Below are positions 3,001-6,000 of a stretch of 6,941 bases of DNA, in pieces. Each line of letters opens with the position of its first letter. Position 1 is the stretch's first letter. Made by a program: the position numbers. The DNA lies in the IMG/VR virus record IMGVR_UViG_2695420889_000005, positions 1 through 6,941 of that record; one strand, given 5' to 3'. This DNA comes from a virus (taxonomy: Duplodnaviria; Heunggongvirae; Uroviricota; Caudoviricetes).

Positions 3001-6000
3001 TTCTCTACTGCAATCTGGATTTTCCTGGATATATTCGATAACGGTCATGTAGTCCCTTTTAGTTAATAGAGGTTTCTGATTGCATGCTATGAGTATTCAT
3101 TTCGTTAATGATTTCATCCAGAAGGAGCTTAAGGCCTTCTCGACCCATATCTGAAAGAATGAAACCTTTATCAGGGGAAGTGGTGAGCATTTTCTGATAA
3201 AGAAACAGCGCTCTTCCCATTCCCTCAGCTTCGCCATATTTTTGAATTAAATTCCATTCAATATGCTGCTGTAAGGCAAACCGAATGGGGCCAGGGTATA
3301 TAGTCATAACGCCATGCTTCCCGTTATATATTACGGCGCGATCTGTTGTTCCGTGTTCATTCGGGATATCAATAGTGCCATTCTTGTTTTCTTCTTCGTT
3401 GATGAACGTCGTCACGTACAGCCAGCGCCACTGGACTATCTTCATCTCAACAGGGAGTTTTCCCAGTAATCCTGCATTGTCGGCTTGCGCGAGACATTGA
3501 AGGATTTGCAAACCTCTCACATTAGGAGTATCGAATTCTCCAGCATCCAGACGGCGTATAGCGTCGTGATAATCAATCGTCATACTGCCAGTTCGTATAC
3601 CTGTGGCTGTTGCTTCAGCCTGGAATTCAGCGTATTGCATGATATTTACTCCTCATCTTCATCTGCTGGTGCAATAACGTCATATCCTGCCTTTTCTGCA
3701 ATAAACAGGAATGTTGAAAGACTTCCTACAAGTTCATCGTCATGAACATGGCGAATGAATATTACTTTCCCGTTTTTGATGGTCAGCAATACTCTGGTTT
3801 GTTCGTGTTCTGCTGTTTTCTGATGCATTATTATCTCCCGTATGCTTTACGCAGAAATAAGCAGGCAATATGCATGTAATTTTCACCGTGTTGTGCAATA
3901 AGACAGGCTGTTTTGTGTGATGCCTTATGTTTTATAAAAGTCATAATAAAACCTCCTGTGGATTAAGTGTGTGATAATCCCCGGCGATTAAGCCGTAATA
4001 TAGTATCTGGAGATGACTTGTTCTATTTAGCTGGATAGTTCTTTTTCAGCTGCTGCTTCAGCATAGCAACGTGCAAATTCAAGAACTTCATCACCTGTTC
4101 TTTTTATTGCGTCGTTGTCTGACATTTGTAATACGATAACTGCGCATAATAAATTATGGATATTGTTTGCAAAGGAATCCGGTGCCAGGCATAAGCCTTC
4201 ATACTTATCATGGATATTGCCAGTCATTGTTGCTGCTCCTTTGCTTCTGATTTTCCCGTTAACAACCACATCAGGTCACAATTAAGAGCACTGGCCAGTG
4301 GTACTATCTGATCAGCTGGAACTTCATGGATGCCGCATTCCCAGTCGTTTATGGGGTCACTGTAGGTATGAATCATGCGGGCAAGATCAGCTTCAGTTAA
4401 GCCCAGTTTTTTACGGGCGCTTTTGATGCGTGCGCCAATACTTTCCACATGGACTTCAGGCGCATTTACGCGAATAGCTGACTCGCTGTTTTTTTCACTC
4501 AGCAGAGAAAGCGGATCGCATCCCAGGACGTTTGCCAGGGGGATAAGCATGCTGATGGTTGGCTCGAACTCTCCACTCTCCCATTGCAGAATAATCTCTT
4601 CGTCAAGATCGAGTAATTTGGCGAGTTCGGCGGTCGTCAAGCCGCAGGCTTCACGTTGGGTACGGATTTTTCCAAAAAAGTGACTATGCGAAACCATAGC
4701 TTTTGCCTCACATAGTTTTTCTGCAAAAATTGATGCAGTTTCTTCTGTTTTTTGCAGGGAACGCATCAGGCATCTGATTGCATTATAAACCCTCTCACTT
4801 TCTGCTCCGTTTTCTGACATGTAGGAATAGATCATTCCAAGCAGCGAGCCGCCTTCTTGTATTTGTGCTGCAATTTCATCCATCACCTTAACTGCATGCT
4901 TCATATGAGCCTCCTGTTGTTTTAATTTCACAATAGCTAAAGCGTTTGGTTATGTCAATCGCTATAGCTATGCATTTTGAGCAGCAAAGAACAGATTATG
5001 AGAGAAATGAGACGATACGTAGGGAGTTGAGATACAGGAAAGTAGAGCAGCTGCGCAATACAGCTGCCGGTGGTGTTGACTTATCCGACCCTGTTATACT
5101 GGATTGACTGATGAATGAGAACTTTCCCCATTATGAATAGATGTTCTTCAGCTGATTCACTTATAAACCATTCCTTGTAGGCCGGATTGTCTGATATAAC
5201 AGCAAGTTGCATCCCTTGCATTTGCAGGCGTTTGATATGGAAGGTGTGCCCAAAAATAAAAACATAGATACCGTCAGTTTCAAAATTTCTGACGGATACG
5301 TCGACAAACACCTGATCTCCTGCACACAGAGTAGGAGCCATGCTGTCGCCATCAACTGTTATCATCTTTATGATATTTGCTGGCCTGCTACAGAACAGAC
5401 GTCTTGCGGCGTCATGTGAAAATTCTATAGCATGGACCGTTTCTGCAAAATCTGAAACAAGGAATGTTCCTGGTCCCGCGCTGGCAGCGATATCCAGGAC
5501 TTCCACACGAAAAATATCCTTATCATTTTCCAGCGGGGAATATGATACCTGTGGTGTCGGATTGCAGGATGTGCTTTCTTCTGGGGTCATAGGACCAACA
5601 CCGTACGATAGCCACTCGGGGCGCACGTTCAGGGTATTGGCTATCTCCACAACTTTCCTGGAGCCTGTGGCACCATTAACCAGTTTATTTACGCTCGATT
5701 GAGCCATGCCAACCTCTCTGGCCAGTTTTCCCTGCGAGTATCCGCGGATAGTCATAGCTAACTGTAGCCTGTCTGAAAAGCTCATAAGTCCTCCTTTTTC
5801 TGCCCTTTTAGTGTATCGCCTTAGCGATATATACACAAACCGCTTTTCCGCACATTGTAATCGCTTTGATCAATCGCTATAGTGAATGGAATCAGGTTGG
5901 AGGTCGATATGAAAAATGAAGGTATAGCCAAGGCTGTAGATATTGCGGGAAGCCAGATTGCTCTGGCTAGGCGTTGTGGTCGCGCGCAGTCAACAATTTG

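Follow-up and report, generated by a model that had tools for sequence, protein, structure and literature searches.

A conserved early-left gene trio of a lambdoid Escherichia coli prophage and its putative link to the P4 protein Cnr

What is encoded by three short, tightly packed genes that lie in a lambdoid prophage between its immunity region and its ea/xis/int block, and are they an imported defence module or an ordinary part of the early operon? The question was raised by a stretch of 6,941 nucleotides (nt) from a tailed-phage record (IMG/VR record IMGVR_UViG_2695420889_000005, positions 1 to 6,941; hereafter the window), which spans the immunity region and the early-left region of a lambdoid, Shiga toxin (Stx)-phage-like E. 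coli prophage. A first-pass annotation, made from the sequence alone, had singled out three consecutive minus-strand open reading frames (ORFs) of 37, 60 and 193 codons as a candidate horizontally acquired module with a possible role in defence. The ORFs were found to be present as described and are called p37, p60 and p193 here (coordinates in Table 1), and the three together are referred to as the module. In the reading that we prefer, with a probability of roughly 0.45, they would encode early lytic accessory proteins of a repressor-controlled pL-type operon, with p193 as a protein-binding regulator of the Cnr type known from the satellite phage P4.

Three real genes in an early-left operon

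All three ORFs are real genes, conserved across genera and under purifying selection. For p37, the ratio of non-synonymous to synonymous change (pN/pS) was 0.14–0.33, with pS near saturation (0.7–0.9) and non-synonymous change at 0.1–0.26; 386 changes were counted at third codon positions versus 219 and 85 at the other two, and the homologues, drawn from Escherichia, Citrobacter, Phytobacter and Klebsiella, show an in-frame indel of two amino acids (aa). The corresponding pN/pS values of p60 and p193 were 0.29–0.50, obtained by comparison with the homologues of phiP27, ASU11, phi467, Klebsiella, Citrobacter and Phytobacter. The p193 family comprises 123 clusters at 50% identity and the p60 family at least 560 members, and an exact look-up placed the unaltered p37 sequence on 673 contigs. 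p37 is annotated in Stx-phage records and unannotated in RefSeq (PGAP) for the same E. coli DNA (prophage of strain EH031, locus L002, 9776-9886).

The genes are as densely arranged as first described, with gaps of 2 nt between p37 and p60 (3830-3829) and 5 nt between p60 and p193 (3645-3641), and the Shine-Dalgarno (SD) sequences that had been assigned to each of them proved correct to the base. The SD of p193 is embedded in the codons for the acidic DEDEE tail of p60, an arrangement which points to translational coupling of the two genes. Among near-identical relatives the tail (3646-3663) differs in length, being DEDEE, DEDEDEE or DEEEDEDEDEE; as the SD of p193 lies within these codons, such trinucleotide-repeat variation could tune the coupling.

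The best sigma-70-like site of the region is a pL-like promoter, located in the 149-nt gap between the genes for a CI-like repressor and a double helix-turn-helix (HTH) regulator. Its −35 element is overlain by the candidate operator 12-mer TATAGCGATTGA, a second exact copy of which lies in the cI-cro intergenic region; two exact copies, one per control region, are the pattern expected of oL/oR operators, and the pair is probably the oL and oR of this immunity type. The module follows about 1–1.9 kb downstream of the promoter. Over this distance no terminator-like site was detected, promoter-like sites were not in excess compared with shuffled sequence, and the genes overlap or are separated by a few bases. 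Given this promoter and operator layout and the tight gene packing, the module belongs to the repressor-controlled early-left operon. From the architecture we infer repression by CI, so that the three genes are predicted to be silent in the lysogen and expressed upon induction or infection.

The same operon position is occupied in lambda by the early-left genes kil, cIII, ral, gam and ea. The early-left accessory proteins of lambda are small, transcribed from pL and dispensable in the lysogen, and several of them bind a host protein; Kil and cIII are of a size class similar to p37. Differences from lambda are an HTH regulator at the place of N and the lack of sequence similarity between the trio and lambda accessory genes (Pfam). 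Known lambdoid recombination or housekeeping genes, which by the first-pass annotation's own account would have refuted its reading, were not recovered, as none of the three proteins matched the exo, bet, gam, kil, cIII or ral families in Pfam or PHROG.

The AT-rich character of the stretch, taken at first as a sign of horizontal acquisition, is real but modest. The G+C content (GC) of the module is 0.420 versus 0.462 for the window, with 39 of 606 equal-sized windows lower still, and the p193 gene itself (0.440) is near the window mean. Low GC is seen all the way from 2794 to 4269, so that the trough also takes in both neighbours, the winged-helix gene downstream (0.396) and the 80-aa gene upstream (0.399), and is not specific to the trio. 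In a scan of positions 2700-4400, promoter-like sites numbered 3 against 4.0 expected and terminator-like sites 0 against 0.9 expected; no promoter or terminator was found bracketing the module in this range, nor any in the spacer at 3945-4026. Because of the position in a pL-like operon and the lack of a bracketing promoter or terminator, the three genes are ordinary members of the early-left operon and not a self-contained moron, and the moron reading was not supported. Their composition differs only slightly from that of the surroundings. A place in this operon speaks against a moron, strictly defined, as well as against a function in the quiescent prophage.

p193 and the P4 protein Cnr

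The C-terminal half of p193 (residues ~115-180) is remotely homologous to P4 Cnr (ORF106, DUF5375, PF17345). When an alignment of 53 p193-family sequences was compared with P4 Cnr using hhalign, a probability of 81% and an E-value of 1.2e-5 over 91 columns were obtained, and a local rerun gave a score of 33.1, compared with a mean of 11.0 (standard deviation 1.9, maximum 17.8) for 200 shuffled Cnr sequences. A hidden Markov model (HMM) of the p193 family scored Cnr with 22 bits (E 4.6e-9, one target), and among 13 P4 proteins scored, Cnr alone stood out. One family member (P0039) carries a precomputed weak match to PF17345. The family and Cnr also share their ends: the p193-family consensus terminates in ...P..PV.H, its final His being conserved in at least 90% of the members, and Cnr in ...APVLH.

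The core of p193 is paralogous to a second phage family, F120 (phrog_1737). Residues 64-184 of p193 matched F120 with a probability of 95.3% (E 2e-8, hhalign), and p193 can be described as an N-terminal extension joined to a core common to F120 and P4 Cnr. F120 lacks the N-terminal 60 residues of p193, stands in the same gene array as p193 in eight examined loci, and is absent from the window. Since F120 and p193 are homologous, the full form of this array has the domain in two paralogous versions.

p193 is a soluble protein without a detected catalytic motif, as is Cnr, which is likewise small; p193 is, however, nearly twice as long, owing its own features to an additional N-terminal part and an inserted beta-sheet. 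The predicted model of p193 is confident and had no structural match in PDB or BFVD, and sequence and profile searches of PDB with p193, p60 and their family alignments gave no match. The model of p60 consists of a beta-hairpin and a helix, followed by the low-complexity DEDEE tail. A membrane-spanning segment was detected in none of p37, p60 and p193. That no family could be recognised for these proteins, as first stated, holds for Pfam, NCBIfam and PADLOC, none of which gave a match, but not for PHROG, in which p193 corresponds to phrog_1515 and p60 to phrog_340, both without annotated function; for p37 neither a Pfam nor a PHROG match was obtained. The PHROG, Pfam and accession identifiers of these families were not mentioned in any paper found in the literature search.

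Several other assignments were considered and rejected. A DUF1980_C match (E 0.018) was below threshold and was treated as noise. Membership of p60 in DUF905 (YkfF/YeeT/YpjJ), suggested by the name of one UniRef cluster, was discarded, as 28 members gave no DUF905 match at E ≤ 5, hhalign a probability of 0.08% and the HMM −2.0 bits. No p60-like domain was found within the larger Ant/Bro proteins of the fetched loci. P4 epsilon showed no similarity to the p60 family, nor P4 ORF151 to p193 or to F140, a further array family. The label "2-polyprenylphenol hydrolase / flavodoxin oxidoreductase", carried by p193 homologues in Klebsiella phages (records H92-H97, e.g. MF695815.1 25821-26399), is supported by no profile search and looks like a propagated misannotation.

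A modular array, its satellite relatives and the neighbouring genes

The module is 92–95% identical to its counterparts in Stx1a- and Stx2a-converting phages and in phage PhiR49_2, and its closest match among 5426 complete E. coli genomes is the prophage in strain EH031 (99.4%). With identity above 90% and nearly full length, the 902-bp module was present in 202 of these genomes (~4%), and a further 57 matched only part of it. In the partial matches listed (n = 7) the matching part was the p37 region, again above 90% identity; inspection of one of them (E2528-C1) showed the p37 segment upstream of different cargo. These partial matches indicate mosaic junctions at ~3828, exactly between p37 and p60, and at ~3082. 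The latter falls within the last seven codons of p193 and accounts for an aberrant C-terminus, SMQSETSIN instead of the family's ...PEAPVTH. The two junctions bear out the first-pass view that accessory cargo at this site, flanked by the immunity region and the ea/xis/int block, is variable.

p193 relatives with an identity of 68% or more are encoded in 80 IMG/VR loci, all of which keep the order p37, p60, p193, and the same three genes are adjacent in phiP27 and ASU11 at 51–58% identity for p60 and 66–68% for p193. P0116 as a query yielded no viral locus. Family HMMs were then applied to 13 loci from seven genera, in which six families occur in a fixed order: p37 (no identifier), F120, p60, a 72-aa ParE_like protein (PF24732, phrog_1525), F140 (phrog_1886) and p193. 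All six are present in Citrobacter youngae and in Klebsiella phage KPP5665-2; p37, p60 and p193 only are found in the window, phiP27, ASU11 and all of the 80 close IMG/VR loci. By family profiles and gene order, the trio is the reduced form of a modular array that recurs in Enterobacterales lambdoid prophages. E. coli E2528-C1 and Fels-1 have p60 but no p193. Conservation as a unit, presumed at the outset, is therefore only partly correct: the genes stand together in the 80 viral loci and the 202 genomes, but the families also occur separately, so that the three ORFs are linked by descent and layout without being an obligatory unit.

A ParE_like gene of 72–73 aa was observed in six loci (L003, L004, L005, L006, L012 and L013; e.g. 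L005 5370-5591). It is always preceded by F120, which is present in 6/6 of the loci with this gene, and the p60-family gene usually overlaps it.

The most distant p193 relatives (30–39% identity) reside in small integrative or plasmid-state elements and not in lambdoid prophages. These elements, which resemble P4 and phage-inducible chromosomal islands (PICIs), carry an integrase, AlpA or Ant proteins, an Icd-like gene and a TOPRIM primase-helicase of ~900 aa, the N-terminal 330 residues of which are 34–37% identical to P4 alpha. In L094-L099, L187 and L188 the TOPRIM primase gene has a p193-like gene upstream of it; of four elements inspected, three have the two genes next to each other, and in L094 three small genes intervene. 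This is the position that cnr holds upstream of the primase gene in P4. The cnr gene controls P4 copy number, and 90% of P4-like elements carry it, at a site flanked by epsilon and alpha (PMC8628076). In the satellite loci scanned (L094-L099) no canonical cnr was detected, and the best weak Cnr matches were the p193-like ORFs themselves.

Further genes were seen to be common to the two kinds of element. Families of ~75-aa and ~112-aa small genes, as well as the Icd-like gene, occur both in lambdoid early-left operons and in P4/PICI-like satellites (Table 1). For 61% of P4-like elements a "small protein (75 aa) of unknown function" is described at the site flanked by epsilon and alpha (PMC8628076), and the ~75-aa family may, judged by eye, be this protein. 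Some p193-bearing lambdoid prophages of the Klebsiella/Citrobacter type encode a primase-helicase with Toprim_2 and AAA_25 domains among their replication genes (L183 1-213).

The features of the window are collected in Table 1; Rfam families were not found in it. In its left part, a 117-aa ORF (1567-1920) overlaps the 3' part of the 265-aa Ea22-like ORF (1760-2557) by 160 nt, and the stretch is annotated as three shorter genes in related Stx phages. The Ea22-like gene of the window may be fused or wrongly delimited.

Table 1. Features of the window, in minus-strand reading order, and of related loci where a locus is given
Feature	Position	Strand	Remarks
Second exact copy of TATAGCGATTGA, probable operator	5870-5881		cI-cro intergenic region
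S24/HTH CI-like repressor gene	5081-5836	minus	
Candidate operator 12-mer TATAGCGATTGA	4955-4966	minus	over −35 of pL-like promoter
pL-like sigma-70 promoter	4930-4958	minus	TTGACA-17-TATTGT, 10/12 matches
Double-HTH regulator gene	4224-4931	minus	
66/80-aa gene	4027-4269	minus	
Spacer, 82 nt	3945-4026	minus	AT-rich (GC 0.39), between 66/80-aa gene and p37
SD of p37	3957-3952	minus	AGGAGG
p37 gene	3831-3944	minus	37-aa basic protein (isoelectric point, pI, 9.8); first gene of array
SD of p60	3839-3835	minus	GGGAG, within 3' end of p37 gene
p60 gene	3646-3828	minus	60-aa acidic protein (pI 5.0), phrog_340
SD of p193	3654-3649	minus	GAGGAG, within p60 acidic-tail codons
p193 gene	3059-3640	minus	193-aa soluble protein, phrog_1515
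p193 core domain, residues ~64-184	3089-3451	minus	paralogy with F120 (phrog_1737)
Winged-helix (wHTH) gene	2794-3048	minus	
DUF4752, Ea22-like, DUF551, DUF4222 and excisionase-like genes	further left than winged-helix gene	minus	
~75-aa / ~112-aa / Icd-like genes, first group	L006 7263-7487, L007 6497-6721, L094 4652-4879		
~75-aa / ~112-aa / Icd-like genes, second group	L004 6882-7220, L094 4756-5220, L188 6637-6987		

Weighing the readings

In the Cnr-type reading, read-through from the pL-like promoter would lead to coupled translation of p37, p60 and p193. p193 would then bind a replication protein or another DNA-binding protein stoichiometrically and non-enzymatically and thereby modulate its activity, the target being a phage, host or co-resident satellite protein. 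This binding mode is proposed by analogy with Cnr, which reportedly (work ascribed to Terzano et al. in 1994 and Ziegelin et al. in 1997) binds the alpha primase-helicase and raises the binding of alpha to the origin iterons. p60 might serve as a small co-translated partner or adaptor in possible contact with p193, and p37, predicted as a small basic two-helix peptide, could belong to the class of short early-left regulators.

A number of results weigh against this reading. The window p193 and five other members gave no PF17345 match at E ≤ 10, and the window protein thus did not reach the gathering score of 30 bits, whereas P4 ORF106 scores 210.9 bits; together with the profile-level homology this argues for relatedness at the level of a superfamily and not for family membership. 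F120 compared with Cnr alone was not significant. The Cnr side of the family-to-Cnr comparison is a single sequence, because an IMG/VR scan and a phage tblastn search returned only near-identical P4 copies. The clade of the window has lost the C-terminal PVxH motif through replacement of the last 7 codons at ~3082, and its p193 gene lies in a lambdoid early-left operon and not, as cnr does, upstream of a TOPRIM primase-helicase gene. The closest complete prophage (L002, EH031) replicates with O-like, DnaC-like and DnaB-like proteins; as it has no alpha-type primase, the target of P4 Cnr is absent there. p60 and p193 are moreover split by the ParE-like gene and/or F140 in Klebsiella and Citrobacter, while Phytobacter, the CwR94 locus and three of four satellite forms inspected have p193 but no p60.

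It is rather unlikely that p60 and p193 form a generic host-takeover or anti-defence pair, acting early in the lytic cycle and unconnected to replication control. The early-left position in a known variable cargo region would suit such a pair, as would two mildly acidic, soluble proteins without detected catalytic motifs and the weak matches of p60 to the C-terminal parts of two PHROG "anti-repressor" families (E 2.7e-5 and 3.4e-4); the fold being novel, homology excludes no function. Neither protein, however, resembles known anti-defence proteins or families (Pfam, NCBIfam, PHROGs, PDB), and a pI of ~5 is unlike that of a DNA mimic. The sole homology signal found points to Cnr, and a host-directed role leaves unexplained why the same family adjoins replicase genes in satellites; no finding favours an anti-defence role specifically.

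An anti-satellite function appears improbable. By analogy with Cnr, p193 would upon induction halt the replication of co-resident P4/PICI-like satellites by binding their TOPRIM primase-helicase; p193 would be a captured satellite brake, turned by the helper-type lambdoid phage against the satellites, p60 perhaps its cofactor, and F120 perhaps a second specificity in the fuller arrays. The p193 family does adjoin satellite replicase genes and also sits in early-left operons of lambdoid prophages without such a replicase.

We consider it very improbable that the module is toxin-antitoxin (TA)-like or causes abortive infection, with p60 as neutraliser and p193 as effector guarding the lysogen against superinfection. 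The coupling of a small acidic gene to a larger one that follows it would fit, and in fuller arrays the p60-family gene is directly upstream of the 72-aa ParE_like (PF24732) gene and overlaps it by 29 nt, the classic TA layout known from ParD/ParE. Unlike ParD, however, p60 has no recognisable antitoxin DNA-binding fold, and the pairing is not obligatory, since the ParE-like gene directly follows F120, without p60, in two loci; an HMM search of all ORFs found no ParE-like ORF in the window. p193 and p60 each occur without the other, contrary to the strict co-occurrence expected of such a pair, the module has no promoter of its own and lies downstream of a repressible pL-like promoter, and p193 matches no toxin family in Pfam, NCBIfam or PADLOC. 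The defence or abortive-infection pair envisaged by the first-pass annotation was likewise not sustained, since none of the three proteins matched PADLOC-DB at E ≤ 0.1 and each of the p193 and p60 families is found without the other. The analysis revealed no new defence system, and flagging the region as such is not warranted.

That the ORFs are decaying or functionless filler between selected genes is hardly credible: every database name is indeed "hypothetical" and frameshifted or split copies are known (P0031, P0033, phi467), but purifying selection in all three genes across genera, the large p193 and p60 families with their retained gene order, and confident, compact predicted folds speak against it, and the selection and conservation rule out non-functional ORFs.

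The locus thus adds a conserved early-left array, a 37-aa gene missed by RefSeq and a putative long branch of a Cnr superfamily, in a module that is also carried by many Stx-converting phages. If the Cnr link is true, it would provide the first functional handle on a widespread "hypothetical" prophage family, and the Cnr family, so far that of a single phage, would become a superfamily spanning lambdoid phages and P4/PICI-like satellites. It would then be a testable question whether helper-type phages modulate the replicases of satellites or their own.

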